A program made the position numbers and the translations under genes. DNA of 64,000 nucleotides from the NCBI GenBank assembly GCA_947629485.1, contig CANRDX010000001.1, forward strand, positions 6,663-70,662, written 5' to 3'. This document shows positions 1,780-61,100 of the stretch, in pieces. This DNA comes from an uncultured Clostridia bacterium (GTDB taxonomy: Bacteria; Bacillota; Clostridia; Christensenellales; Borkfalkiaceae). Each line of letters opens with the position of its first letter. The first letter of the stretch is position 1. The notes under the pieces were generated by a model, which was given only the letters and a program-made list of their open reading frames with translations, made no database searches and was not told the origin of the DNA.

Positions 1780-1803
1780 CCACCCGCACTGCGGGTGGTT
1801 TTT
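1780..1803 (+). terminator. Intrinsic terminator after mgtE
   Basis: 8-bp stem ccacccgc/gcgggtgg with a 3-nt loop, followed by ttttt, 20 nt after the mgtE stop. Confidence 0.75.
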
Positions 1804-1836
1804 CATTACACGGAAACGGTCTTGCCCCTTGCCCAC

Positions 1837-2340
1837 CCCTTCGAGGGGAAAATTTTGCTTTTCTGTCAAAGATTGATAATCTTTGGCGCAAAATTTTCTT
1901 GGCATTTGCCCATATGCACGGGCAAATGCTGACCGCCCCGCGCGCACTATTCTCTACTAAGCGCGGCACGAGCCGTAGGCGAAGTAACGCGGGGGTCTAC
2001 CCGCGTGAGAGGGTGTCACGAGCAACGCGAGTGACGGAAGGGGTGTCATTCCAAATTCGTCATACTGAGCTTGTCGAAGTATCACCATAGCAAGGCTTCC
2101 CCCTTCGAGGGGTCGCAAAACGCATTTCTGCACATCGGCACGGTGTGCCGTGTGCGCGTTTTGCGGTGAGTGAGCGCATTCGTAGCGCGAACGACGACCG
2201 AACGCGGGGTTCTACCCGCGTGAGACAGCTGTCACGTTAGTGACTGATGAGGGTTGGTTTCTAATGTGCCCCTCATTCGTCACGGCTTTGCCGTGACACC
2301 GGGGGAAGGCTTCTAATCACGTCATGAAGTATCACCTTAT
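1837..2340. repeat. Mosaic of GC-rich hairpin repeat modules (locus A)
   Basis: A string of short stem-loops. It shares about 170 bp with 7128-7296 and shares cgtcatactgagcttgtcgaagtatcacc with 47708-47788. It also contains GTCAC..GTGAC mini-palindromes at 2015-2035, 2231-2244 and 2279-2297. Confidence 0.8.
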
Positions 2341-4985: not shown

Positions 4986-5015
4986 TTGACGGGAAGAGGC
5001 GGCTATTGGTAAAAT
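4986..5015 (+). promoter_or_regulatory. Sigma-A-type promoter for the 623-aa lipoprotein gene
   Basis: TTGACG (4986-4991), 18-nt spacer, TAAAAT (5010-5015). It is divergent from the sigma operon promoter. Confidence 0.55.
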
Positions 5016-5044
5016 AAAGTCAGATCCTATCGGGAGGAAGATTT

Positions 5045-6916
5045 ATGAAGTTGAAGAAGTTCACCTGTGCGATCACCGCGCTCGCGATGGCGGCGGCTTT
5101 CGGACTTGCGGCCTGCAACGGGCAACAGGGCGATAAAGACGGCGACCACACCCATAGCTATACCATGAAAAGCAGCGAAACGCAGCATTGGGAGGCGTGT
5201 TCCTGCGGCGAAGAAAAGGCGGATAGCCGAGGCGCGCACGTCGATGAAGACGGCAACGGCGAGTGCGATGTGTGCGGATACGGCATGGGCGAATCCCACG
5301 GCCACGTCTGGGCGTGGAAGTACGAAGGGGACTATCACTGGCAGGAATGCACCTGCGGCGAAGAAAAAACGGGCAGCCGCGGCTTGCACAGCGACGACAA
5401 TAAGGACGGGGAGTGCGACGTCTGCAAGGCGCCCGTCAAGACCGAGGACGGCGGCGGGAGCGGCAGCGGCGACGAACATACGCATTCCTATGTATGGATG
5501 CGCGACGGCGCGCAGCATTGGCAGGAATGCTCCTGCGGGGAGACGACGGCAAAGACGCCGCACACCCAAAACGCCAACTATCGCTGCGCATGCGGCTATG
5601 CCTTCGACGCGCCCGCGGAAAACGGGCTGTCGTCTACGAATTATTGGATCATCGGGACGTTCACCGACAATAAGGACGGCGGCACGACGGGCTGGGGCGA
5701 GACCCACAGCGATCAGTGGAAATTCCACCGCCTCATCGGAAAGGATACGGAAGGAAGGACGCAATACGTCTTTGAACGCGCCTTCAAGGGCGGCGAAGAG
5801 TTCAAGATCGTCAAAGACGGCGGCGGGTATTGGGACGGCGAGATCAACGCGGACCATGTGAGCGCGAACGCGAAGAAGCTGTTCGACGGCAACGACGGCG
5901 GCAATATCAGAGTCGTCGGCGGCGCGGGCTACTACGTCATCACCCTGCACGCGGGCAGCGGAACTCCCTCGGTAGACGCCGGATTGCTCTATGGCGAGGG
6001 GAGCAAGCCCCAGCCCCACGAGCACGAATATTCTTCGGCGTGGGAGAGCGACGAAAGCGGCCATTGGCACCCTTCCATCTGCCAGCACACAGGACTGAAA
6101 CAGGACGAAGCGGCGCACACCTTCCAAAACGGAAGCTACACCTGCTCCGTCTGCGGCTACACAAAACAGCATACCCATGTCGGGGGCGAGTGGGTGAACA
6201 ACGCAAGTTCGCATTGGAAAAACTGCACGCTCTGCGGCCGGATGATGCAGGAGACCGAAGCGCCGCACAGCGGCGTGCCTTGCTCCGTCTGCGGCTACAA
6301 TGTCGCCGTCTCGGGGGCGTTGGAATACGAATACGATGAGGCGAGCAGATCCTACTTCGTCACGGGGTATGTGTACGACGAGATCGAGGAAGAACTGCGT
6401 ATCCCCGCAGAGTATAACAATAAGAAGGTCACCAAGATCGCAGGCCAAGCGTTTATGGGGTGTAATAAGATCCGAACGGTCATCATCCCCGATAGCGTCA
6501 CCTGCATTGACGTCTATGCATTCTATAACTGCGCATACCTTGCGAGCGTGAGCCTCGGCGCGGGCGTGAAGGAGATCGGCATGTCGGCATTCGGGAACTG
6601 CTCCGCGCTTTCGTCGATCGCCTTCCCCGCGAGCCTTACCAAGATCGGCAACAGCGCCTTTGAAAACACGGCGATCACCGAATTTACGGTGGGCAAGAAC
6701 CTTGTGGAGATCGGCGCATTTGCTTTCCGCACGAAGGATCTTCATGCGGTCACCTTCGAGGTGACGGCAGGCTGGAAGGTGCGCAACCTGCCTTTCAGCG
6801 AAGAAAGCGAAGATGTGAATGTTTCCGACCCCGTGACGAATGCGAAGAAAATGTCCGTTGCATTCTTCCAAGACAACGTTAACGGCCGCGCCAACTATAC
6901 TTGGACGCGCGGCTAA
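5045..6916 (+). CDS. Surface lipoprotein with five Cys/His-rich modules, a CBM-like beta-sandwich segment and C-terminal BspA-type leucine-rich repeats
   Basis: Signal peptide with lipobox FGLAAC. Repeated H-x-H..HW-x-x-C-x-CG..C-x-x-CGY modules. The segment GEEFKIVKDGGGYWDGEI..GNIRVVGGAGYYVITL resembles carbohydrate-binding modules. An LRR_5-like stretch (IPDSVTCIDVYAFYNCAYLASVSLGAGVKEIGMSAFGNCSALSSIAFP) follows. GGGAGGAAG RBS. Confidence 0.8.
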   Translation: MKLKKFTCAITALAMAAAFGLAACNGQQGDKDGDHTHSYTMKSSETQHWEACSCGEEKADSRGAHVDEDGNGECDVCGYGMGESHGHVWAWKYEGDYHWQECTCGEEKTGSRGLHSDDNKDGECDVCKAPVKTEDGGGSGSGDEHTHSYVWMRDGAQHWQECSCGETTAKTPHTQNANYRCACGYAFDAPAENGLSSTNYWIIGTFTDNKDGGTTGWGETHSDQWKFHRLIGKDTEGRTQYVFERAFKGGEEFKIVKDGGGYWDGEINADHVSANAKKLFDGNDGGNIRVVGGAGYYVITLHAGSGTPSVDAGLLYGEGSKPQPHEHEYSSAWESDESGHWHPSICQHTGLKQDEAAHTFQNGSYTCSVCGYTKQHTHVGGEWVNNASSHWKNCTLCGRMMQETEAPHSGVPCSVCGYNVAVSGALEYEYDEASRSYFVTGYVYDEIEEELRIPAEYNNKKVTKIAGQAFMGCNKIRTVIIPDSVTCIDVYAFYNCAYLASVSLGAGVKEIGMSAFGNCSALSSIAFPASLTKIGNSAFENTAITEFTVGKNLVEIGAFAFRTKDLHAVTFEVTAGWKVRNLPFSEESEDVNVSDPVTNAKKMSVAFFQDNVNGRANYTWTRG

Positions 6917-6931
6917 AACGCCGAACCTCAA

Positions 6932-6958
6932 AGGGGACCGCTCCGCGTCCCCTTTTTC
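6932..6958 (+). terminator. Intrinsic terminator
   Basis: Stem aggggac/gtcccct with an 8-nt loop, then ttttt, 16 nt after the stop. Confidence 0.75.
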
Positions 6959-6988
6959 TTTGCCGTTTTTACGCCGCGACAGGTGAGG

Positions 6989-7430
6989 ATTCGAGCTGCC
7001 CCCGTTGAAGGGGGCGGCTCCCGCGCAGCGGGTGGTGGGGGTTGAATTTCCAACGCGTCATTCCGAGCGAAGCGAGCGAATCCCCCCATACGCAGTCCGC
7101 AAGGCTTCCCCCCTTGAAGGGGTTGAACCCTTGTCGCCCCTGCAAGGGAAAATTTTGCTTTTCTGCCAAAGATTGATAATCTTTGGCGCAAAATTTTCTT
7201 GGCGTTTGCGCATATGCCCGCGCAAACGCTGACCGAACGCGGGGGTCTACCCGCGTGAGAGGGTGTCATGCCGCGTGCGGCATGACGGAAGGGGTGTACG
7301 CAATGAAGAATAACACCCCCTCCGTCGCGCAAAGACAGCGCGCCAGCTCCCCCTCAAAGGGGGCGCCAAGAGGTTACCGCGTCATTCCGAGGGGGAGGGC
7401 GGCACGGCTTCGCCGCGATGGGTGGGGGTG
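6989..7430. repeat. Mosaic of GC-rich hairpin repeat modules (locus B)
   Basis: 6993-7050 matches 47644-47700. 7128-7296 matches 1837-2052. gcgtcattccg occurs at 7055-7065 and 7379-7389, and as its reverse complement at 17827-17837 and 18069-18079. 7391-7428 matches 47604-47641. Confidence 0.85.
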
Positions 7431-7489
7431 AAAAAAACAAAAAACTACAAATTTTTTGAGCAGATTTTCAAAAAGGGCAAGAGAAATGC

Positions 7490-7519
7490 TTGACATAGAA
7501 TGTGCGCGCATGTTATAAT
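7490..7519 (+). promoter_or_regulatory. Sigma-A-type promoter for the 1406-aa lipoprotein gene
   Basis: TTGACA (7490-7495), 18-nt spacer, TATAAT (7514-7519), in an AT-rich spacer region. It would give a leader of about 90 nt. Confidence 0.6.
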
Positions 7520-7617: not shown

Positions 7618-10600
7618 ATGAAAAAAATCAAACGGTTGCTCATGGTTGCGTTCAGCGTACTGTGCATTGTCTGCGCTGCGGCGGCGTTTGCGGCTTGCGG
7701 GGGAGATTCCTCCTACAAGCTCACGCTCAATGCAGGTGCGAACGGCACGGTCACGGCTTCTCCCGCATCCGACGACGGGGAATACGCATCGGGCACATCT
7801 ATCACCGTCACCGTAACGCCGAACAGCGGCTACGAAGTGGATACCTTCACGGTGAGCGGAGATAGCGACGCATCGCTTTCGGCAAACGGAACGTACACGT
7901 TCAAGATCGAGGCGGATACGACGATCGGTGCGACGTTCAAAGCGTCGCCGATCTTTACGGCAGATTATATCGGAACGTGGAGAATTTACGGCGTTTATAG
8001 CGGAGGATATGCGGCGGAAGTCACCGCGACCGGGCTGACGATCAACGGCACGGCGATCGATGTGACGAAGACGGCAGACGGCTATACGTTCGATGTGGAT
8101 TATGGCGAAGACACCACGGCGACTTGCAACGCGTCGCTCGTTGCGAACGGGCTGGTGCTTCACGTTGTCGCAGAAGTCCCCGCCGAAAGTGCGGACGAAG
8201 AGCCGTATGTTGAGCACATCTATCTTGTGAAAGACGGCGTGCAGCTTCCCGACGTCAAGCTCGGCGCTTCCTATTATAACACGAAGTGGGTTTGGGAAGG
8301 TGAGTATTTGTACGAAGTCGGCGCTCTCACCGTAGACGGCAGCGGCACGGTCACTTACCGCAGCGGCGAACCCGAAACGGTCGTCATTCTTTCCCTCGAC
8401 GCCACGGCGGGCACAGGTCTTGCGCTCGTCGGCCACACGCTCTACACCTTCACGGCGACGGCGGATTCCATCACGCTTTCGACGGACGGTGAGGACGACG
8501 CCGTCTTTACCAAAACGGTCATCGAGGCGGAGGAAGCTTCTCTTCCCACAGAGTTGGCAGGCACGTGGCAGGGCTGGCTGAACACGTACGATGAGGAAGG
8601 CAAGCTCGAAGTTGCAGCGGACGGCACCGCCAAGTGGAACGGCGAGGCGGTGACGACGTATGAAGAGGACAGCTATTACTTCTTCGCCTACGGCGGAAAT
8701 ACATATTGGATCGAGTTGTATGATTACAGTGCCATCCCCTTCGTCTCCGTTTCCGACGATTACGGCACGGAGTACAGTCTCTATCCGCTTGCGGAAGGGG
8801 TGGACGCAGAGGCCATTCCCTTCGGAACCTACACCTCCCTTACCGGCAAGACGATTGTGATCGCAGCGGATAAGATCACGATCAACGGCACGGAGTTCAC
8901 GCAGTTTATCACCAATGGGTACAATTATACCACGCTCGGAACGTTCTATCAGCTTAACGTCGAGTATGGCCGCGATTATATCTTGAAGGTCAGCGACGCA
9001 GAAGGCGTGGATCATGTCTATCTCAGGGGCGAGATTTCGCATCCCGAGACGCTCAACGAGGAGCTTGTCGGAAACTGGAACGTTACGACGCACAACGACT
9101 TCGGGCAGGCAACTTCCGCCGGCACGCTCGTCTTGAAGGCGGACGGCACCGCGACATGGGGGGATCACAAGATCCTCATTCTCTCCGCAGAAGAGTCGTA
9201 CGGCGGCTATTATCTGCTCGAAATGGTCATCGACGATTCCATTGTAACGGGTTCCTTCACGCTGTATGAAATGGAATTCCAGGGTATAGTCGGGCAGGCG
9301 TTCTACTACTTCGAGAAGGATCTTTCCGACGCGCTCTTCGATGAGACCTTCCTCGGCGAATGGGACGATCTCGGCGAGGATGAGCAGGTGCCCGTGATCG
9401 ACATCACCGCGAACAAGCTCACCCTTGACGGCGAAAAAGTGGACGTGACGGGCAATGCGAAAGACGGCTTCGTCTTTACCCATACCGATCCCGATACCGA
9501 GTGGGAGCTTACTTACACCCTCACGCTTTCCGACGACGGCTATGTTCTCATCGTTGTTGTGGAAAACGAGGCGAATGAGTATCACACGGTCTACTACTAC
9601 ATGAGTTACGAACACAATCCCGAATTTTACGTCATCGACGAATCCTATTGGGGAACCGAGTGGTCGGAAGGCGCCATGGGCGGTCTTTCCATCGACGAAT
9701 ACGGCGAGATCACGTGGAATAGCTACGGCCCTCTCTCCGTCAGATTTGTCACCGTCTCCAAAGACGGCAAGAGCGGTACGCTTGCCGCCGGCGCGGGCTA
9801 CTACTATTTCACGCTCGGCGACGACGACACCATCGTGCTCACCGAAGTGATGAATTCCGAAAATGTGCACCACTTCGTCAAAGAGGCGGAAGTCCCGCTC
9901 TCCATTCCCCAAGAACTTCGCGGCACGTGGAATGCGCTCACGATGGATGGGACTACGATCGTCATCGGCGAAACTTCCGTCACGGTGGATGGCGAAACTC
10001 CCGACTCCATCTTCTACGACAGCGAGATGCACACGATCTACCTCACATTGGCAGACGGCTCCGAGCCTTCCATCGTGCTCATGACCGACGGCAATGCGAT
10101 CTGCTATGTGGCAAATTATACTCCCGCCTTCTTTGTTCAAGAAGGGTTTGAAGGGCCTCAGACGCCCGTCTCCATGCCCGCGGACTACGTCGGTACATGG
10201 ACGGCTACGCACGGCGATGATGCCTACACCCTCACGGTAGACGCGCAGGGCGGCGTCACCATCGGCGACGATCAGTTCATGCTCCTCACGTTGGAAGAGG
10301 GATACGGCACGGCGATCTGGGGCGAGTATTGGTGCACTGTGGAGCTTGGAGAGGACTTCATCAAGTTCGATGTGTACTTTGGCGACACCTATAACTTCAC
10401 GCAGGGCGGTGACGTCGATCCCGTCGGTTCCACGCTTCTTCCCGAAGCGCTTCGCGGAAATACCTATACCTGCACCACGGCGGGCGAGGCGAACTTTGTG
10501 GTTGCCGCAGACGGCACCGTCTCTTGGGACGGCCATGTGGTTACCATTCTCTCCATCGAAGATTACAGCAATGATTATGGCATTTCTATCGACGGGCAGA

Positions 10601-11838
10601 TCGACGTGGACGGCGATACGTACAGTTTCAGCTGTCATAGTGTGGCGGAGCTTCATCTCGACAATTTCTCCATCGATAGTCATTACGTGTTTGTTCTGCC
10701 CGCAGAATTCGATGATTCGTATCTCGGGGACTATCATACCCTCACGGGCAAGACGTTGAAGGTCGAGACAAACAAGCTGACCGTCGGCGATGAAGTGTTC
10801 ACTTCCTTCTATGGCACCGCGGAAGACGGATACACAACGATGGGCGGCGATACGACGTATATAGTCGCTGCTTCCGAGTATGCTATCGGCGTTCTGTCTG
10901 TTACCCCTGTAATAGAAGGGACCCCTGGTACACCGTATGCTTATGTGACCGAGGATGTCGTAGGCGTCGAATCGCTCGACGAAGCGTATGTCGGGGACTG
11001 GACTGTCACGGATGTCACGGAAGATGAGGTCGATGCGGGTACCCTTGTCCTCGCTGCCGACGGCACCGCGACCTGGGATGGCCATGAGGTGCTTGTGCTT
11101 CTCACGTTTGATCAGACTGACGAGGGAATGACAACCTACATGGTATTGATGATTATCGACGACTATATGATCGACTCCTTCTTCTTCTTCACCGATTGCT
11201 ATATCGCGGAGTATGTGGACGTAGGTGACAGCACGTACACCTTCACGAAGGTCGTCGCTGAACCCGAAACGATCCCCGCCGATCTGCAAGGATATTTCAC
11301 GGCGTCGAAATTAACTTACGATATTATCCTCGACGTTGAGGAAGATGTCATTCACTTCACCCTCAATGGGGACAAGACGGACGTGACGGATTTTACCTAT
11401 CAGGAATTTTGCGAAGATGATCTTCCCGGCATTGTGTTCACGGTGAACGAAGTGGAGTATAAGTTCTACGGAACGCCGGATTACCCCGACTACGGTCCGT
11501 ATTTCCAAATCAAGTTCCCGTCGGCAGACGGCGTTAATGTCTTGATAGACGCTACGCCGAGCGAGAAGCCCGTGATCACTTCTGACGAATTCATCGGCAA
11601 CTTCACGGGAACCGGAGACGATGAAACGGAATTCACGCTCGTTGTCGACGCATTCTCCGTGAAGCTCAATGGTGAGACGGCGACAGATGTTTCGGAAAGC
11701 AATTTCATGGGAACGCCCGCCATCTTCTTTACAACGACGGCGTATGGAACATGCTTTTTGGAGTATGCCGCTGACGGCACCTATACCCTTTATACCAACA
11801 GTATGTATGGTACTTCTGCTACCATGACGAAGAACTGA
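7618..11838 (+). CDS. Very large surface lipoprotein: InlB-B-repeat-like N-terminal domain plus about 12 tandem GTW-type (lipocalin-like) modules
   Basis: 1406 aa. Signal peptide with lipobox AAFAACGG. The N-terminal segment YKLTLNAGANGTVTASP..GTSITVTVTPNSGYEVDTFTVSG resembles the divergent InlB B-repeat. Modules of about 90-110 aa recur, opening with (L/Y)xG(T/N/D/E)W and containing ADGT(A/V)xW(D/N/G)G. AAGGAGATAGG RBS. Confidence 0.8.
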   Translation: MKKIKRLLMVAFSVLCIVCAAAAFAACGGDSSYKLTLNAGANGTVTASPASDDGEYASGTSITVTVTPNSGYEVDTFTVSGDSDASLSANGTYTFKIEADTTIGATFKASPIFTADYIGTWRIYGVYSGGYAAEVTATGLTINGTAIDVTKTADGYTFDVDYGEDTTATCNASLVANGLVLHVVAEVPAESADEEPYVEHIYLVKDGVQLPDVKLGASYYNTKWVWEGEYLYEVGALTVDGSGTVTYRSGEPETVVILSLDATAGTGLALVGHTLYTFTATADSITLSTDGEDDAVFTKTVIEAEEASLPTELAGTWQGWLNTYDEEGKLEVAADGTAKWNGEAVTTYEEDSYYFFAYGGNTYWIELYDYSAIPFVSVSDDYGTEYSLYPLAEGVDAEAIPFGTYTSLTGKTIVIAADKITINGTEFTQFITNGYNYTTLGTFYQLNVEYGRDYILKVSDAEGVDHVYLRGEISHPETLNEELVGNWNVTTHNDFGQATSAGTLVLKADGTATWGDHKILILSAEESYGGYYLLEMVIDDSIVTGSFTLYEMEFQGIVGQAFYYFEKDLSDALFDETFLGEWDDLGEDEQVPVIDITANKLTLDGEKVDVTGNAKDGFVFTHTDPDTEWELTYTLTLSDDGYVLIVVVENEANEYHTVYYYMSYEHNPEFYVIDESYWGTEWSEGAMGGLSIDEYGEITWNSYGPLSVRFVTVSKDGKSGTLAAGAGYYYFTLGDDDTIVLTEVMNSENVHHFVKEAEVPLSIPQELRGTWNALTMDGTTIVIGETSVTVDGETPDSIFYDSEMHTIYLTLADGSEPSIVLMTDGNAICYVANYTPAFFVQEGFEGPQTPVSMPADYVGTWTATHGDDAYTLTVDAQGGVTIGDDQFMLLTLEEGYGTAIWGEYWCTVELGEDFIKFDVYFGDTYNFTQGGDVDPVGSTLLPEALRGNTYTCTTAGEANFVVAADGTVSWDGHVVTILSIEDYSNDYGISIDGQIDVDGDTYSFSCHSVAELHLDNFSIDSHYVFVLPAEFDDSYLGDYHTLTGKTLKVETNKLTVGDEVFTSFYGTAEDGYTTMGGDTTYIVAASEYAIGVLSVTPVIEGTPGTPYAYVTEDVVGVESLDEAYVGDWTVTDVTEDEVDAGTLVLAADGTATWDGHEVLVLLTFDQTDEGMTTYMVLMIIDDYMIDSFFFFTDCYIAEYVDVGDSTYTFTKVVAEPETIPADLQGYFTASKLTYDIILDVEEDVIHFTLNGDKTDVTDFTYQEFCEDDLPGIVFTVNEVEYKFYGTPDYPDYGPYFQIKFPSADGVNVLIDATPSEKPVITSDEFIGNFTGTGDDETEFTLVVDAFSVKLNGETATDVSESNFMGTPAIFFTTTAYGTCFLEYAADGTYTLYTNSMYGTSATMTKN

Positions 11839-11879
11839 CCGAAAGAGCGGCGGCGCGCTCCGCGCGCACCCAACACAAC

Positions 11880-11913
11880 AAAAAAATTACGGGCGCTCGC
11901 CCGTAATTTTTTT
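11880..11913. terminator. Bidirectional intrinsic terminator
   Basis: Stem attacgggc/gcccgtaat flanked by A7 upstream and T7 downstream. Confidence 0.8.
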
Positions 11914-11954
11914 GTCCCCGCACGGGCAAAATGACCTGCCCCCGTTTACGGGGG

Positions 11955-12360
11955 CGGGTGTCACGGCTCCGCCGTGACAGGTGGGGGTAAACACTTGTCG
12001 CCCCTGAAAGGGGAGATGTCACGAAGTGACAGAGGGGTTATAACCCTTTCCCCCGCTACGCGGGTACTTTCCCTTTCAGGGACAGCCTAACCCTCATCAG
12101 TCACCTGCGGTGACAGCTTCCCCCGTAGACGGGGGAAGCCCTACCCCTTTCAAGGGGGAGGGTGGCGAGCGCAGCGAGACGGGTGGGGGCAAACACTTGT
12201 CGCTCCTGAAAGGGGAGATGTCACGAAGTGACAGAGGGGTTATAACCCTTTCCCCCGCTACGCGGGTACTTTCCCTTTCAGGGACAGCCTAACCCCCATC
12301 AGTCACCTGCGGTGACAGCTTCCCCCTTCGACGGGGGAAGCCCTACCCCCTTCAAAGGGG
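11955..12360. repeat. Tandem duplication (two units of about 202 bp) of a multi-hairpin cassette (locus C)
   Basis: aaacacttgtcgc..gggggaagccctaccc starts at 11989 and again at 12191. The two units differ at fewer than about ten positions by eye. Confidence 0.9.
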
Positions 12361-12404
12361 GCAGCGCGCAGCGTGGGCGGAGGGGGGAATTTCACCCGTT
12401 CCCA

Positions 12405-12433
12405 TTGACGGATCGCAAAAGCGGCGGTATAAT
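12405..12433 (+). promoter_or_regulatory. Consensus sigma-A promoter for ansA
   Basis: TTGACG (12405-12410), 17-nt spacer, TATAAT (12428-12433). Confidence 0.7.
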
Positions 12434-17702: not shown

Positions 17703-17740
17703 GGAAGAACGCTCGGCAAACGCCGCCTGCGTGCTAAAAT

Positions 17741-18112
17741 GAGATGTGGAGAACGAACCGTAGTAAATTTTGTTTTGCGAGGTGCGGACTTCGTATCAGG
17801 GGATTCACTCCCCCACTGCGTGGGGGCGGAATGACGCATTTCCCTCAAGCAAAACAAAATTTGTGAACTCAATTCCTTGCGTTAGGCGGAATTCACTTCC
17901 GCCGTGCGCGACCCAATTTGGCAAGCCCTGTTGCCTTAATGACTTTGAGAACAGAAAAGTCCAGCGGGCGATACGGCTTAGAGATGTACAATACTAACCC
18001 CTCGTAAAGTTTTGTTTTGCGAAGAATGGACTACGTATAAGGGGATTCACTCAACCCCGTTGGGGTTTCGGAATGACGCGGTGCCCCAAAAAGCAAAACA
18101 AAATTTACGAAA
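17741..18112. repeat. Two MITE-like palindromic elements (about 100 nt each) in the ruvC-ruvA spacer (locus D)
   Basis: Copy 1 lies at about 17761-17868 and copy 2 at about 18004-18112. Both are bounded by inverted repeats aaattttgttttgc / gcaaaacaaaattt and both are preceded by gagatgt (unit period about 240 bp). Confidence 0.8.
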
Positions 18113-18126
18113 CAAAAAGGCTTCAT

Positions 18127-20827: not shown

Positions 20828-20837
20828 GCGGCGCATC

Positions 20838-21140
20838 TCTTCGTCGCGCTTGCGTTTTCCCTCGGTCATTTACCTCATAGTAAACTCCCGTCGGGAAAGC
20901 CGCGCGCTCCTCGACCTGCTTGCTTCTAAAAAGAGGCATTCTCCGTGAGGACGACTTGTTTCGTCGCGCTTGACGGCGGGTCGCGTACCTTTGTACGCTC
21001 CCCTTGTCAACGCTCGCTTTCCTTGTCTTGCTCGTTTCTAAAAACAAGCGACCTTCCTTCTCTGTAAGGGTGGCTCCCTTCGTCGCTTACGCGCGCTCCT
21101 CAACCTGCTTGCTTCTAAAAAGAGGCATTCTCCGCAAGGC
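20838..21140. repeat. Direct and degenerate repeats in the queA-tgt spacer (locus E)
   Basis: gcgcgctcctc(g/a)acctgcttgcttctaaaaagaggcattctccg occurs at about 20902-20946 and about 21091-21135. cttcgtcgcgcttg-like units occur at 20838, 20959 and 21078. Confidence 0.8.
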
Positions 21141-45317: not shown

Positions 45318-45482
45318 GCTCGACGGATCTTTCCCTCGGGCAAGGCCGCAGACAACGGGTGCCGCTCCGCAGGGAGCGCTCAATATCCCGTCGAGGTCAA
45401 CTTCTAAATCTTGTTTTAGAGTTGCTCCGTACTGTCTGCGTACGGAGCTTTATTTCGGCGTGAAAACGCCATAGGAGGTAAT
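45318..45482 (+). promoter_or_regulatory. Ribosomal protein L10 leader (candidate autoregulatory attenuator)
   Basis: A structured leader of about 165 nt in the canonical position. It ends in the hairpin gctccgtac/gtacggagc (45424-45448) plus tttattt, just before the rplJ RBS. Confidence 0.6.
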
Positions 45483-47525: not shown

Positions 47526-47563
47526 CGACCCCGTTGACTTTCCGTCAACGGGGTCGATTTTTA
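47526..47563 (+). terminator. Strong intrinsic terminator
   Basis: Perfect 13-bp stem cgaccccgttgac/gtcaacggggtcg with loop tttcc, then attttta. Confidence 0.85.
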
Positions 47564-47569
47564 TAAGCG

Positions 47570-47880
47570 CTTGTGAGGGGGAAGCCCTACCCTTCGCTTG
47601 CGAGGGGGAGGGTGGCACGGCTTCGCCGTGACAGGTGGGGGTAGAGCTGCCCCCTTTGAAGGGGGCGGCTCCCGCGTAGCGGGTGGTGGGGGTTGATTTT
47701 CTTAATACGTCATGTTGAGCTTGCCGAAACATCACCGCATTATAATAAGGTGATACTTCGACTTCGCTACGCTTCGCTCAGTATGACGGATTAGAACGTG
47801 CGCGCGGGGCAGTATGACGATTTTAGCCTTCCCCCCTCGGGGGGAAGGTGCCGAGCAAAGCGAGGCGAATGAGGGGCAAT
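47570..47880. repeat. Mosaic of GC-rich hairpin repeat modules (locus F)
   Basis: 47604-47641 matches 7391-7428 and is related to 11955-11988. 47644-47700 matches 6993-7050. 47708-47736 and the inverted copy at 47749-47788 match 2058-2086. Confidence 0.85.
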
Positions 47881-47938
47881 ACTTTAATTACGTCATCGTC
47901 CCGCCCTTTGACACCGATCAAGCGGCGTATCAGAATAT

Positions 47939-52658: not shown

Positions 52659-52686
52659 AAATCTATCGAAATAAAACGGAGCAAAT

Positions 52687-52721
52687 AAAAAATCGCCGAC
52701 TGTTCGGCGATTTATTTTTTT
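52687..52721. terminator. Bidirectional intrinsic terminator
   Basis: 10-bp stem aaatcgccga/tcggcgattt with loop ctgt, flanked by an A-run and a T-run. Confidence 0.85.
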
Positions 52722-52951
52722 GTATCCGTATTTGCGTATCGTTTCGGCTCGTCCGTCTGCCCCAACAAATAGTCGATACTCGTATTATAGAATTGCGCGA
52801 GGCGTATCAAAACATCGGTGGGCAGATCGTTTTCGCCCGTTTCATATTTCGAATACCCCGTTTGCGACATTCCGAGCATCTTTGCGACTTCGGTCTGATT
52901 CAAATCATGGTCTTCCCGCAGATCCCGGATCCGTCGATACATTCTTCTCAT
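52712..52951 (-). CDS. XRE-family helix-turn-helix transcriptional regulator
   Basis: LREDHDLNQTEVAKMLGMSQTGYSKYETGENDLPTDVLIRLAQFY. The start is ambiguous between ATG 52951 and ATG 52942. GC content is visibly lower than in the flanking genes. Confidence 0.85.
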   Translation of the reverse strand: MRRMYRRIRDLREDHDLNQTEVAKMLGMSQTGYSKYETGENDLPTDVLIRLAQFYNTSIDYLLGQTDEPKRYANTDTKK

Positions 52952-52973
52952 TTTCTTTGCCACTCTGAAAAAA

Positions 52974-52982
52974 ATTATAACA
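52974..52982 (-). promoter_or_regulatory. Extended -10 element for the XRE gene
   Basis: Minus strand reads TGTTATAAT. It lies back to back with the plus-strand promoter at 53000-53028. Confidence 0.45.
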
Positions 52983-52999
52983 CGAATGCGCGGAAGTAC

Positions 53000-53028
53000 T
53001 TGACATATAACCTGTTTTAGGTTAAAAT
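53000..53028 (+). promoter_or_regulatory. Consensus sigma-A promoter for the PH-domain gene
   Basis: TTGACA, 17-nt spacer, TAAAAT. The inverted repeat ttgttgaa-N8-ttcaacaa (53033-53056) lies just downstream. Confidence 0.65.
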
Positions 53029-53091
53029 AGGGTTGTTGAAGGGCACGATTCAACAAAAAAACAAACAATAGGAGAAAAAAGGAGAGCAAAA

Positions 53092-53538
53092 ATGAGTAAG
53101 TACGTAGAGAACAATTTGCAAAAAGGGGAAACGATCGTAAAGAAAGCGAAGATCACAATGCTCTTTGCTTTCATGCACATCACGAACATTCTGATCATTC
53201 CGCTCATCGTCCGCCTTGTTAAGGTCAAAAACATCGCGCTTGCCTTCACCAATAAGCGGATCGTCGGAAAGGTCGGCGTCATTAAGACGTAGGCGCTCGA
53301 CGCCCCGCTCAACAAGATCCAGAATTGCTCCGTGAAACAGGGCTTGGGGGGCAAAATTTTCAATTACGGTACGATCAGAGTCGACACTGCCGCGGGAAAA
53401 TTTGAATTCGGCGGCGTGAAGGACGCCAATGGATTCAAGAATGCGCTCATGGCGCAGACCGACAAATTTGAAGAGGACAGAATGCAACAGCAGGCCAGCC
53501 AGATGGCGCAAGCAATGGCGGGCGTTCTCAATAGGTAA
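53092..53538 (+). pseudogene. Bacterial PH-domain (bPH_2/YdbS-like) membrane protein interrupted by one in-frame TAG
   Basis: ORFs 53092-53292 and 53332-53538 are in the same frame. Reading through TAG 53290-53292 gives a contiguous bPH-like sequence ..FTNKRIVGKVGVIKT*ALDAPLNKIQNCSVKQGLGGKIFNYGTIRVDTAAGKFEFGGV.. Confidence 0.7.
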
Positions 53539-53644
53539 GGTAGAATTCCGCTATCGTGTCGGCGTGTTCAACCATAGTTCATACTCCTAAAATAGATAGG
53601 AGCGTCGGGGACGTATGTCCTCGGCGCTCTCTTCTATCATGCCG

Positions 53645-58066: not shown

Positions 58067-58100
58067 AAGGAGAGCTTTCCTACGCGGAAAGCTCTCCTTT
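58067..58100 (+). terminator. Strong hairpin after pnp
   Basis: Perfect 14-bp stem aaggagagctttcc/ggaaagctctcctt with loop tacgc. The U-tract is short. Confidence 0.6.
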
Positions 58101-58123
58101 CAAAAGTGATAAAGGAGATAGCA

Positions 58124-61100
58124 ATGAAAAATATAAGGCGTTTTATCCTTGCCTTTCTCGGTGCGCTTTCGCTCTCCCTCCTCGTGCTCGCGGGCTGCGG
58201 CTCGGGCGCGGAGAAGGCGGAGCTGACGCTCGACGCAGACGGCGTCGGCACGCTCACAAAGAGCGAATACACCGTGGAAGTCGGGTCGAATCTCAAAGAT
58301 CTTCTCAAAGATGTCACGCCTCAGGCGCAGAACGGATTCACCTTTGAGGGGTGGTTCAACGGCGATACTCCCATCGGCGACGACGATACCATGCCCGCGG
58401 GCGGGTTGAAACTCACGGCGAAATATCAGACGACTTACACCGTCGCGATCTATAAAGAGACCGCGGCTTTGGGCGTCTATCCCGCTGCGGCGGACGAGCA
58501 AACGACGCACTCCGCAAGATATAAATCTACGGTCACATACGATCTTGCGCCCGTCACGGGCTACGAGCTTGATGTCGCCAAACCCAACGTGCTCTCGGGC
58601 ACGGTCGGCGTAAACACCGTGCTCACCGTCTATTTGAAGCGCGCGAGCTTCCGCGTCGGCTACGAAGTCAACCTTCCCGAAGGGGCAGAGGCGGAAGGCT
58701 CCGTCGAGGCGGCATACGCGCGGTTCGGCACGGAGACCGCGCTCGCGGATGGCAAGGGCTTCCGTGCGCCCGCAAATCTGCGCTTTTTGGGCTGGTCGCT
58801 CACGGCGGACGGCGAAGTGCAGTATCATGCGGGCGACAATTTCCCCGTCAACGGCGATACCAAGCTCTATGCGGTGTGGCAGAAGGGGATCACCGACGTC
58901 TTTGAAATCAGCGACGACGTGCTCTTTCCCTCCACCGAAGAGGGAGAAGAAAACGTCATATATCTGCGCAGAGCGGGCTTTGACGGGGACGTCGCGGGCG
59001 TTCTGAACGACGGACGGTTCTCCTTCAAGGAAGAGGATCGGGAAGTCCTTGCGGGCGCGATCCTTCCCTCCGGCACCCGATTCTTCTACTATAAGGAAAT
59101 CGGAACGGGGACGTTCGCCGCTGCGGACGGCACGGGCGCCTCGCTCCGTTTGGAGCGCGAGAAGGCGTTCCTCACCGAGGACGGCGAAGTGACGGAGGGC
59201 ACCTACTCCGTCGACGAGCTGACGCGCGAATATATCTTCGAGAGCGAAGAGAGCGAATTCCGTTTCCAACTCGGTCTGAGCGGCGGCGACTATGTTTTCT
59301 ATCGCGAGAACGCGGCGCGCGGCCCCGAGCGCGGATTTTATATCTATAAGAATGCCGAGGGCGAGATCGAGGACAACATCCTCTTCCTCGACGGCATGGT
59401 AGACGGCAACGGGATCGCTACCGCCACCGCCTACACGCTCGAAGATGGCACGCTCGTGCCCGTGCGGATGTTCTACTATTCTCTCGATACCGCCGTTGAA
59501 GGGCTATACCATGTCTTTGACGCAGAGGGCGAGCGCCTGTTCGGTCTGCGCCTCGACGCCTATGAGGGCGAGGCGGGCGGCCGGCGGCTCAAAGGCGCTT
59601 TCCGCACCTCCGACGGGTACGAACAGCTCTCCTATGTGCTCTATGACGAGATGTTCTTCTCCGACGATGTGGGGCGCCACTATCTCACGGTAGACGGATT
59701 CGGAAACGGCGCGATCACCCTTCAAAAGACGTCGGGCGGCGGCGAGACCGTCCGCGGGACGTACGTCCTTAAAATGTTCACCTTCAACGAATTCAGCTCC
59801 TACGTCGGGAACTTTACGGGCGGGCAGGAATGGATGGAATTTACGACGGAGGCGGGGCAGAAGCTCCTTCTCTCCGTGCACAGCATCGTCTATAACGCCG
59901 ATCCCTACTATCTCGTCCTCTCCGAGGAGCCTTATATGCAGGATTGGGCGGGTTCTCCCGTCTCCATCTACGGGGAGAACGATATGCACGGCTCCCTTCC
60001 CCAAAACGCGGCGTTCCTCTTCGAGGGCAACGGCGTCGCCTACGTCTATGCGTGGTTCGTCGATACGGGCATCGGAGACAAGGTCTATGAGAACATCGAC
60101 AGCGGCACCGTCGAAGAAGTGGGCGGCGGAGAGTATATCTTTACCAGCTCGTTGTACGGCTTCCACTTCTCCTTCCGCGAGGAAGAAGGTCTCATCGTCG
60201 TCTCCCCGCGCGACATCATAGAACTTACCACGACGGACGGCGCCCTCTCTCTCGACAGCTGGGGCGCGCTGACGTACGGCGGGAAAACGTATCCCTACGG
60301 GGAGTGGACGGTCGAGGCGATCGGAGAGGGCACAAAGGAGATCGAGGGCAAGGAGAACAACCTCTATATCTTCACCTTCGGCGGCGAAACGCACTATGTC
60401 AAGGTCGAAAGCGGCGCGCAAAACGAGCCTGTTTACACGCTGCTCAGCCACCGCGCCGTCTACGACATCGCATTGAAGCAGTATGCGATGCAGCAGCAGG
60501 GCTTCGAGAGGATGTACTTCCCCGACGCGAATTGGGAGACCGCGGCGCAGACAGAGGCGGGCGCGGAGTGCGTGATCGCCCTTCGTCTCACGAGCGGAGC
60601 CGAAGAATTCGTGATCTACGGCACGGCGCATAAATTTACTTCGGACTATCTGTTCCGGAGCGCGATCTCGGAAGAAGATCTGCTCGGGCTTGGCGTTACG
60701 CAGGAGATGATCGACGCGCTTTCGGCGTTCCGCTTCGTTCCCGACGCCGCCGCGGGGCAGCTTCTCGTCAGCGACAGATTCACCCTCACCGCGGAGGGCG
60801 ACACGGGTTCTTTGAAGCTGGACGGCTACGGAAAGGGCGTGTTCACCCCCGAGGGCGGCGCCCCCGTTGCGGGCAGCTACGACTATCTCGCCACGCGGAA
60901 GGACGGCAGCGAGTTCATCCTCTTTACCGAGGAGAACGGCAAAACGCACTATTTCTCCGTCGTGCAGTCGGACGATCCCTACTTTATCGAGAGCGCCGAT
61001 GAGATGGCGGGTCTTCGCTACTACTTCTACACGCTGGATTCGGAGAGCTACGGCATCTACTACGACGCCTACATCGTGATCTTCGGGGACGGCGAACTGT

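Follow-up and report, generated by a model that had tools for sequence, protein, structure and literature searches.

Repetitive extragenic palindromic (REP) sequences carrying a CGTC or TGTC tag were described as a superfamily by Di Nocera, De Gregorio and Rocco in 2013, with Neisseria dRS3 and Rickettsia RPE-4 and RPE-6 among its members (PMC3733652). Units of this superfamily have a CGTC (or TGTC/CCTC) tag, a stem of 8-9 bp that starts with A-T positions, a loop of 4-5 nt and a tail with the consensus CCA. They form head-to-head dimers, have been reported from five phyla, Firmicutes/Clostridia not included, and 'apparently lack a dedicated transposase' (PMC3733652). Other close systems are the bacterial interspersed mosaic elements (BIMEs) and paired REPs (REPINs) of Enterobacteria and Pseudomonas, together with REP-associated tyrosine transposases (RAYTs), and the hairpin ends of IS200/IS605 elements and palindrome-associated transposable elements (PATEs), which Y1 TnpA mobilises as single-stranded DNA. 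Here we analysed 64,000 nt of contig CANRDX010000001.1 from an uncultured Clostridia bacterium (hereafter the window; 58% G+C), in which five intergenic loci are built as chains of small palindromes, recurrent but in reshuffled order. The reading that we favour, with moderate confidence, is that these loci are BIME-like mosaics of REP-type DNA palindromes which accumulate in quiet gaps between genes, are dispersed in trans by a structure-specific activity and are remodelled by slippage and duplication.

A preliminary description of the window had proposed a dispersed family of GC-rich mini-hairpins at six intergenic sites. This is real for five of the six, which share modules of 25-98 nt at 88-100% identity; the sixth (20838-21140) shares none with them by self-BLAST or module search and is treated separately below. 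The self-BLAST blocks, which change in order and occur in both orientations between loci as had been claimed, pair 1846-1935 with 7146-7235 (93% over 90 nt), 1986-2018 with 7236-7268 (100%), 6972-7050 with 47624-47701 (90%) and 17768-17810 with 18010-18052 (86%). They also group 7388-7429, 47601-47642 and 11950-11989 (90-92%) and reveal a 202-nt tandem duplication (11976-12158 and 12178-12360, 96%). Every motif quoted in that description was found at its place and above chance. Against dinucleotide shuffles, GCGTCATTCCG has four matches (7055+, 7379+, 17827- and 18069-) where 0.10 are expected, CTTCCCCC..GGGGGAAG has three (12117, 12319 and 47828) where none are expected, and GTCAC..GTGAC hairpins number 9 versus 0.32. 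The 'gggagggtggcacggc..' units are likewise shared blocks, except that the unit at 12157-12190 has only the same flanks around a different centre. The palindromes at distant intergenic sites, their two orientations, their changing order and their head-to-head dimers support the likeness to REP/BIME repeats, and the interpretation as a whole is partly supported.

Within the mosaics the foot GTCA occurs 35 times versus 12.6 expected and is nearly always GTCAC or GTCAT, TGTCAC occurs 12 times versus 1.0, and GCGNAGC 12 times versus 3.2. GTAG is only weakly enriched (17 versus 10.3, p=0.03). Sixteen of the 19 distinct CCCC-loop-GGGG hairpins of the 64 kb fall within the five loci (2.3 kb), and therefore no similar locus was overlooked and the list is complete. 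The single-strand fold energies of loci 1-5, compared with dinucleotide shuffles, give z scores of -11.4, -7.0, -11.8, -4.1 and -4.3 (-9.6 for locus 3 with a separate fold program), versus -0.7 for an ordinary intergenic region and -0.05 and -1.1 for two coding stretches.

The five mosaics and their principal units are as follows, with bit scores from the covariance model introduced below.

1820-2395: mosaic 1, from the mgtE terminator (1780-1798) to the putatively bidirectional terminator of a convergent beta-propeller gene (2404-2431)
1846-1935, plus strand: module H+I, copy 1; an 11-bp inverted repeat (GAAAATTTTGC/GCAAAATTTTC) around a CAAAGATT..AATCTTTG hairpin, then a hairpin with loop CATATGCA
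1986-2010, plus strand: module A hairpin AACGCGGGGGTCTACCCGCGTGAGA; other copies at 2201-2225 and 7236-7260
2058-2086, plus strand: CGTC-tagged REP unit CGTCATACTGAGCTTGTCGAAGTATCACC, matched by the regular expression; 41.6 bits
2112-2200, plus strand: module N; a long hairpin CGCAAAACGC..GCGTTTTGCG, then GCGC..GCGC
2320-2337: truncated copy of the CGTC-tagged REP unit
6960-7440: mosaic 2, from a terminator (6930-6955) to a 12/12 promoter-like site (7490-7519)
6993-7045, plus strand: module D, copy 1, GAGCTGCCCCC..GGGGGCGGCTCCCGCG..CGGGTGGTGGGGGTTGA; copy 2 at 47644-47696 with 96% identity
7056-7085, plus strand: CGTC-tagged REP variant CGTCATTCCGAGCGAAGCGAGCGAATCCCC, carrying the GCGAAGC mini-hairpin motif; 35.8 bits
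7146-7260, plus strand: module H+I, copy 2, with a copy of module A directly after it
7379-7428, plus strand: orphan REP head GCGTCATTCCG joined to module C (GGGAGGGCGGCACGGCTTCGCCGCGATGGGTGGGGG)
11916-12400: mosaic 3, from a palindromic terminator (11878-11915) to an 11/12 promoter-like site (12405-12433); holds module C (11956-11987) and the 202-nt tandem duplication (11976-12158, 12178-12360) of units J, K, L and G
12010-12037, plus strand: module J core GGGGAGATGTCACGAAGTGACAGAGGGG; second copy at 12212-12239
17703-18126: mosaic 4, occupying the whole ruvC-ruvA spacer
17765-17862 and 18007-18104: units M1 and M2, 98 nt each, with 14-bp terminal inverted repeats AAATTTTGTTTTGC/GCAAAACAAAATTT
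47557-47900: mosaic 5, downstream of a terminator (47526-47556); holds module C (47606-47641), module D (47644-47696) and a hairpin CTTCCCCCCTCGGGGGGAAG (47828-47847)
47708-47736 (plus strand) and 47749-47788 (minus strand): head-to-head, REPIN-like CGTC-tagged dimer with a 12-nt A/T spacer; 40.3 and 35.1 bits

The modules themselves recur as follows.

Module A: AACGCGGGGKTCTACCCGCGTGAGA, three copies
Module C: GGGAGGGTGGCACGGCTTCGCCGTGACAGGTGGGGG, three copies and one sharing flanks only
Module D: 53 nt, two copies
Module H+I: 90 nt, two copies
Module G: CTTCCCCC..GGGGGAAG, three copies
Modules J-K-L: inside the 202-nt tandem duplication
Module M: 98 nt with 14-bp terminal inverted repeats, two copies
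Module N: 89 nt
CGTCAT-headed units: a further recurrent module

The hairpins of the mosaics fall into four classes. Those of class (i) are tagged with [C/T]GTC and occur singly or as inverted REPIN-like dimers; they combine a 5-bp stem that begins with A-T, mismatches of the tandem G.A type and an apex of the form GAGC..CGA, in which a GCGNAGC mini-hairpin is often formed. Class (ii) comprises TGTCAC..GTGACA hairpins between G-rich arms, usually beside CCCC-loop-GGGG hairpins; class (iii) comprises longer palindromes containing A/T, with TCACG..CGTGA feet (units H and M); and class (iv) is the A hairpin with variable upstream partners. Linkers recur as well, namely GACCG ahead of hairpin A and the spacer TTATTNTTA in dimers. 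A further hairpin may sit between the GAGC and the CGA of a [C/T]GTC unit, as at 47749-47788, where the loop of the minus-strand unit carries additional GCGAAGC/GCGTAGC sequence, and at L012 5526-5571 and L006 5006-5066 (labels beginning with L denote compared contigs or loci from strains, relatives, metagenomes and IMG/VR). M1 and M2 each enclose a reversed CGTC-type unit with a nested C/G hairpin, and are separated by a 144-nt spacer. In L006 a bare hairpin (5222-5255, AAATTTTGTTTTG-GCGAAGCA-CAAAACAAAATTT) corresponds to the M unit without its insert. Such recursive nesting would be explained by insertion into, or next to, single-stranded hairpin loops.

The nearest thing in these mosaics to a described repeat is the [C/T]GTC unit, whose grammar is [C/T]GTC-AT-NNN-GAGC-(loop)-CGA-NNN-AT-C-N-CC. 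A strict regular expression requiring a complementary stem found 14 copies in 4 species, versus none in ten shuffles of 1.4 Mb. A generic detector of CGTC plus any hairpin was dropped as noisy in GC-rich coding DNA (39 matches versus about 15 in shuffles). A covariance model built from seven copies gave 25 matches at E<0.01 in six species, at least 11 of them in the 7.5-kb locus L012; the 64-kb window holds 4-5 CGTC-tagged units. All 14 regular-expression matches and the covariance-model matches begin with CGTC (window, L012) or TGTC (L006, L027). The first stem pair is A-U in 31/33 sequences and the second U-A in 33/33. The stem consists of five Watson-Crick pairs, a tandem G.A/A.G and one G-C, so that it reaches 8 positions only if mismatches are counted, and the tails read CACC, CTCC, CCCC or CCGC. 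GAGC and CGA lie 3-6 nt apart in simple units and 17-33 nt apart in the three nested ones. Head-to-head dimers with an A/T spacer were found in the window (47708-47788), L006 (4877-4980) and L012 (5483-5571).

These features match the CGTC/TGTC superfamily in the unpaired tag at the 5′ foot, the stem beginning A-T then T-A and the short C-rich tail. Compensatory stem variants, several families per genome, head-to-head dimers, a multi-phylum range and the lack of an associated transposase are also held in common. Moreover, spurious open reading frames (ORFs) over the window mosaics carry the peptides RFARND, RQAQHD and SLSMT, of the same kind as the strings DSRFRGND and IPAFAGMT listed for intragenic CGTC units (PMC3733652). 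However, the units here have five Watson-Crick pairs, a tandem G.A and a G-C in place of 8-9 continuous pairs, and they have a GAGC..CGA apex box. Their loop, which runs from 3 to more than 30 nt through nested hairpins, falls outside the 4-5 nt of the superfamily, and they are one ingredient of far more mixed mosaics. The mosaics resemble BIMEs and REPINs in being intergenic palindrome clusters of alternating orientation with a limited set of linkers, and in their inverted doublets, species-specific sequences and strain variation. Unlike BIMEs and REPINs, they have many more unit types per cluster, carry hairpins within the loops of others and are placed beyond terminators, not between stop codon and terminator; no RAYT was found. 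The feet are [C/T]GTC or GTCA[C/T] here, and not the GTAG/GTGG guide tetranucleotide of the REPIN-RAYT system. The apex of many units is exactly GCGAAGC, GCGTAGC, GCGGAGC or the complement, that is, the GCGNAGC sequence known from Hirao and colleagues as an extraordinarily stable DNA mini-hairpin (reviewed in PMC13037366). This is a structural motif and not a repeat family, and accounts for the stability of the apex in single-stranded DNA but not for the spread of the units.

The same grammar reaches well beyond this lineage. An IMG/VR scan for GTCATNNNGAGCN{4,6}CGANNNATCNCC returned 71 matches in 57 contigs of 32-68% GC. In 58/71 of them both NNN are perfectly complementary, where chance would give 1 in 64, and the tag base in these 58 is T in 52 and C in 5. 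The canonical form there is TGTCATTCTGAGCGAAGCGAAGAATCTCC, with five pairs, a tandem G.A and a GCGAAGC mini-hairpin (the true loop being a GAA triloop). The module J class, GGGGAG-N-TGTC-hairpin-GAC-N-GAGGGG, is widespread too: a scan for its core (GGGGAGNTGTCN{5,19}GACNGAGGGG) gave at least 158 matches in at least 120 IMG/VR contigs, and the exact 28-mer of the window recurs at least 10 times. Among the matches listed, 94/158 have triloops, with a GAA triloop closed by C-G predominating; many variants have compensatory stems, a CCCC..GGGG hairpin often stands ahead, and some form inverted pairs about 123 nt apart.

One variant, GGGGAGATGTCCGGCAGGACAGAGGGG, is the commonest among the matches listed (at least 38 copies), often as inverted pairs about 123 nt apart and sometimes twice per contig (L158 6546-6694; L163 712-861; L183; L205; L207; L226 3232-3382 and 6044-6192; L231). 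These pairs resemble the termini of a small element, about 150 nt long.

Whether such units act as DNA or as RNA is addressed first by their pairing. In the covariance-model alignment 94.4% of cells are paired and double-sided changes number 35, versus 9.6 in shuffles (0/500 reach 35), figures inflated by the fitting of the alignment to a structure model. One-sided (G-U) changes number 0, and there are 0 G-U pairs among 196 cells. Even so, this absence of wobble pairs would fit a DNA palindrome better than an RNA helix. It speaks against a role at the RNA level, in which read-through stem-loops would block 3′ exonucleases, insulate transcription units or attenuate operons, or the mosaics would be small RNA genes. 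Such a role has precedent in the E. coli REPs, which stabilise upstream mRNA and can terminate transcription (PMC3733652, PMC6006769), and the window includes a PNPase gene. The units nevertheless occur in both orientations and have mostly triloops, including the DNA-specific GCGNAGC motif. No Rfam family matched the window at gathering level; at E<=1 nothing in the mosaics matched except for a chance hit to ftsZ-DE (27 bits; gathering score 72), which falls on the terminator at 11853-11916.

Position bears on the same question. Four of the five mosaics start just after a strong intrinsic terminator, and three of these four end before a promoter-like site or the terminator of a convergent gene (coordinates above); the L006 mosaic is also placed after a terminator. 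From the terminator and promoter sites, such gaps are predicted to be the least transcribed intergenic parts, which argues against a role as stabilisers of 3′ untranslated regions (3′-UTRs). The preliminary description had put the modules at gene 3′ ends and also inside operons. The first needs correcting, in that the mosaics are not 3′-UTR elements and four of the five lie beyond intrinsic terminators, and the second applies to the ruvC-ruvA spacer only. Mosaic 4, in that spacer, has no upstream terminator and is in keeping with an RNA role, as is the high conservation at three loci elsewhere of a longer element ending in hairpin A, described below. Considering also that block content varies between near-identical strains, we regard function at the RNA level as unlikely.

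The two near-perfect palindromic terminators at 11878-11915 and 2404-2431 have A-runs and T-runs on either side and directly adjoin mosaics. Judging by their sequence, they could be active for both strands.

The mosaics are inserted into spacers that are short in relatives. The distance from the ruvC stop to the ruvA start is about 12-70 nt in most of some 50 relatives and 424 nt in the window. In L005, L008 and L012 this spacer measures 470-750 nt and holds different, unrelated hairpin mosaics, and therefore the same spacer has been colonised independently in different species. Hairpin mosaics including REPIN-like dimers also occupy the spacer between queH and a phospholipase C gene in L006 (4459-5267) and L012 (1800-2336). 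The corresponding spacer of the window (52659-53644) is about 1 kb long and not rich in hairpins (z -0.7), with ORFs at 52712-53089 and 53050-53511, both on the minus strand.

Exact window modules are nearly private: a blastn-short search against the loci of about 80 relatives (about 20 kb per genome) found only module N, in L009, as an 87% match in opposite orientation, in the queA-tgt spacer and thus at a non-orthologous site. Sharing of exact 13-mers with the same relatives was swamped by coding noise and is uninformative for the mosaics, and a protein search with a 134-aa pseudo-ORF spanning mosaic 2, for mis-called copies elsewhere, gave no match. No paper was found in a literature search for the unit sequences, and a search on REP, REPIN and RAYT in Firmicutes gave nothing specific. 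By the preliminary description, confinement of the modules to the window or a match to a known repeat or RNA family would count against it. This is partly the case, in that the [C/T]GTC class matches the described superfamily. Two classes are widespread outside this genome, so that the set is not a private family, although most exact modules are private to this species within the relatives sampled.

A metagenome scan for module A recovered four contigs, L093-L096. There, an element of about 196 nt (GGTGAGGGCGTGCG...CCCGCGTGAGACAACCGA) has A as its 3′ end. Its copies are sharply bounded and share 95-99% identity across three gene contexts, which include sites upstream of plsX-like and ychF-like genes (named from their translations).

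L093, about 4990-5195, minus strand: ~196-nt element
L094, about 2060-2255, plus strand: ~196-nt element
L095, about 1800-2000, plus strand: ~196-nt element
L096, 1-35: ~196-nt element

The z score of its RNA fold is only -2.7; it has no Rfam match in L093-L095, including at E<=1, and no BLAST match among plasmids or phages. The genome with this element also shares other hairpin modules between its loci, so that modular mosaics characterise the lineage as such and not the window alone. Of the element, the window copies retain just the terminal 30 nt or so (GACCG + A + GAGA), behind different partners. In L093-L095 the element ends about 10-12 nt past its 3′ hairpin, which resembles the geometry of the IS608 right end. 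By analogy, the units may be likened to IS200/IS605 ends and PATEs in their subterminal hairpins of about 20-25 nt, short conserved foot and activity at the DNA level. However, there is no tnpA or tnpB near the copies, and a left/right-end pair and a target tetranucleotide are not established.

We then compared strains, using contigs whose flanking genes match those of the window at 99.5-100% identity; near-identical contigs are present in four ENA metagenome assemblies (ERZ27249129, -352, -358 and -610). In L001, 106 nt of mosaic 3 are absent. The junction has only the microhomology TGA, which is too short for a de Bruijn artefact to explain the gap. One 202-nt unit of mosaic 3 is missing from L002, a difference that may be a collapsed tandem repeat. 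An additional block of 161 nt (A′-D′-N′) lies in mosaic 1 of L087, between GACCG repeats, and its N′ is only 92% identical to the N of the window and therefore not a simple misjoin. In the ruvC-ruvA array of L085, at least two additional M-plus-spacer units are present, at 77% identity, and several contigs terminate inside mosaics. As strains that are otherwise near-identical differ by blocks, the mosaics change by whole blocks faster than their flanks gain substitutions.

The same comparison lends some weight to an account that needs no transposase. Template switching or quasi-palindrome correction would make the palindromes, gene conversion or illegitimate recombination would copy blocks, and the debris would be tolerated in untranscribed gaps. 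The strictly Watson-Crick pairing without wobble intermediates, the very short loops (mostly 3-4 nt), the strain indels ending in the microhomologies GACCG and TGA and the 202-nt tandem duplication are all in keeping with it. So is the outcome of the search for a mobiliser, which covered the window and the compared loci. The statement that the window holds no transposase was borne out by Pfam on its approximately 50 proteins. Across about 60 proteins (window, L012, L006) Pfam found no Y1, DDE, serine or tyrosine recombinase, and in the window also no integrase or reverse transcriptase. A tblastn search with seven sequences of RAYTs and terminal inverted repeat-associated tyrosine transposases (TIRYTs) and IS608 TnpA, run on two sets of hairpin-bearing loci of 1.9 Mb and 1.6 Mb, found none; this is compatible with a gene present once in another part of the genome. 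IS200-type (subclass 1.1) TnpA is common in Clostridia (PMC6006769). Local events of this kind have difficulty, however, with identical modules of 25-53 nt lying 5-40 kb apart, and with module N at a non-orthologous site of another species. The recurrence, in contigs of 32-68% GC, of one hairpin grammar whose unpaired tag, apex and tail are conserved would be hard to reach by independent local origin, and the conserved unpaired positions ([C/T]GTC, GAGC..CGA and C-N-CC) point to recognition by a protein. We therefore hold the transposase-free account to be a possible but rather doubtful one.

Unit M and the H part of module H+I invite another comparison, with classical miniature inverted-repeat transposable elements (MITEs) derived from a DDE transposon. 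In that case M (17765-17862, 18007-18104) and H (1848-1903, 7148-7203) would be the mobile elements and the small GC-rich hairpins their cargo. The perfect terminal inverted repeats (14 bp in M, 11 bp in H) suggest as much, the repeat sequence of M is kept in another species (L006 5222-5255), and M is multi-copy, with copy number differing between strains. However, M and H, for all their terminal inverted repeats, show no target-site duplication, with none visible at either M copy. The M copies stand in a tandem array, in which a spacer of about 145 nt is repeated along with them, and are not dispersed single insertions. Moreover, the homologue in L006 consists of no more than a hairpin, its loop 8 nt long, and therefore the 'terminal repeats' of M are a hairpin stem that received an insert. 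No DDE transposase was seen by Pfam in the window or in REP-rich relatives, and mosaics 1-3 and 5 would be left unaccounted for. We consider a MITE origin very improbable.

Under the BIME-like reading that we favour, the units would act as DNA, as single-strand hairpins or cruciforms, and not as RNA. They would spread in trans through a structure-specific enzyme encoded elsewhere, which would be either a Y1 HUH transposase (RAYT or IS200 type) or a different activity recognising the GTCA[C/T] foot. Preferred landing in or beside existing hairpins would give rise to clustering and nesting. The mosaics would then be remodelled by tandem duplication and by slippage at microhomologies (GACCG, TGA) during replication, and units would persist where insertion is least harmful. 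Several points weigh against this reading, besides the inflation of the pairing counts given above. No transposase was found in the window, in REP-rich relatives or across related or hairpin-bearing loci totalling about 3.5 Mb, and most exact modules have no match in the relatives sampled. The ruvC-ruvA mosaic lies within a probable operon. The strain contigs come from metagenome assemblies of 3x coverage, in which the 202-nt difference could be a collapsed repeat, and the strain differences end in microhomology, which fits slippage as well as mobility. A clean junction, filled versus empty and with a defined target site, was not recovered among the strain contigs.

Other candidates were rejected. 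An assembly artefact was ruled out by identical mosaics in independent assemblies of four samples. The lack of a regular repeat-spacer period ruled out a CRISPR-like array. An inverton (phase-variable promoter) was ruled out, with inverted repeats 3-70 nt apart and no recombinase nearby. A group II intron remnant had been suggested by the string GAGCCGTAGGCGAAG and the post-terminator position, but the string cannot form domain V and the Rfam intron models were negative. Hairpin A was tried as a tRNA-like T-arm, but has a 6-nt loop and no match to the tRNA model. The G-rich arms were considered as G-quadruplexes; their tracts are irregular.

The sixth locus of the preliminary description is of another kind. 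A structured element of about 110 nt lies on the minus strand of the queA-tgt spacer in three full or partial copies.

20828-20937, minus strand: ~110-nt structured element
20998-21044, minus strand: further full or partial copy
21090-21134, minus strand: further full or partial copy
L009 12276-12385, L035 12254-12355, L008 6139-6546, L028 6651-6741 and 7551-7647: the element in relatives

Between the stretch 20828-20937 and the sequence that directly follows queA in L009 and L035, identity is 95-96%, although QueA itself is only 70-81% identical in these species. Homologues were found only in the queA-tgt spacer, in 1-3 copies, in at least 12 species. A 5-bp hairpin co-varies between them (TTTAC/GTAAA, GTGTAC/GTACAC, CATAC/GTATG, CGTAC/GTACG), as do further stems, and a stretch of 21 nt (AGAAGCAAGCAGGTCGAGGAG on the minus strand) is near-invariant. 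The minus strand folds better (alifold -23.3 versus -13.5 kcal/mol), with 15 G-T versus 2 A-C pairs. No Rfam match was obtained at gathering level or at E<=1. The element is thus a candidate structured RNA or cis element in its own right, distinct from the hairpin family, and may represent an RNA not yet described that is connected with queuosine genes.

The gene content of the window is housekeeping only.

Genes: mgtE, a sigma factor and two large surface proteins
Genes: asparaginase, upp, ruvC-ruvA-ruvB-queA-tgt-yajC, secDF, recJ and relA
Genes: aldolase, gapdh, phoH, era, recO, the L10/L12 region, ruvX, pdxST, queH and PNPase

The RuvB protein is 88-90% identical to those of uncultured Clostridia metagenome-assembled genomes from rabbit and chicken gut; the relatives by RuvB, the nearest found here, include Candidatus Gallimonas (placed by NCBI in Clostridia incertae sedis). 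A sub-threshold match to RF00557, the ribosomal protein L10 leader, at 45328-45463 on the plus strand (39.6 bits; gathering score 44; E=0.007) lies directly upstream of the L10/L12 genes and is probably a genuine leader. A scan of the window for tRNA and tmRNA found none. Direct repeats inside genes (5186-5275 and 5336-5425; 8596-8638, 9118-9160 and 11035-11077) belong to a BspA-type leucine-rich repeat protein and a 1406-aa Flg_new_2 protein on either side of mosaic 2. These are protein repeats of two surface-protein genes, unrelated to the hairpin modules. At about 58100-64000 a plus-strand frame is stop-free over 58100-59269, 59504-61684 and 61817-63907 with typical codon bias (GC3 about 0.8), and therefore a very large gene probably runs past the end of the window. 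Long minus-strand ORFs in this region are shadows of that gene and have no Pfam match.

Work on REP-type repeats has been almost confined to Proteobacteria, in which the RAYT transposase explains the GTAG class; the CGTC/TGTC class has had no known mobiliser since its description in 2013. An uncultured gut Clostridia lineage carries this class and at least one other widespread hairpin family, in unusually mixed and strain-variable mosaics. A more far-reaching suggestion, to which we would give little credence at present, is that the [C/T]GTC and GGGGAG-N-TGTC units are pan-bacterial self-propagating DNA hairpins with no dedicated transposase, relying on a universal host activity on single-stranded DNA, with insertion preferring existing hairpin loops. 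If this were true, the nesting, the clustering beyond terminators and the covariation by Watson-Crick pairs only would be footprints of the mechanism, and the hypervariable mosaics of Clostridia would be a natural system for catching it in action. If the mosaics prove to be genome-wide, they would be fast-evolving strain markers, a cause of contig breaks in gut metagenome assemblies and, through their translations, a source of spurious small 'hypothetical proteins'. Their nested, terminator-distal architecture would then lead to concrete predictions on how hairpin repeats without a transposase spread.

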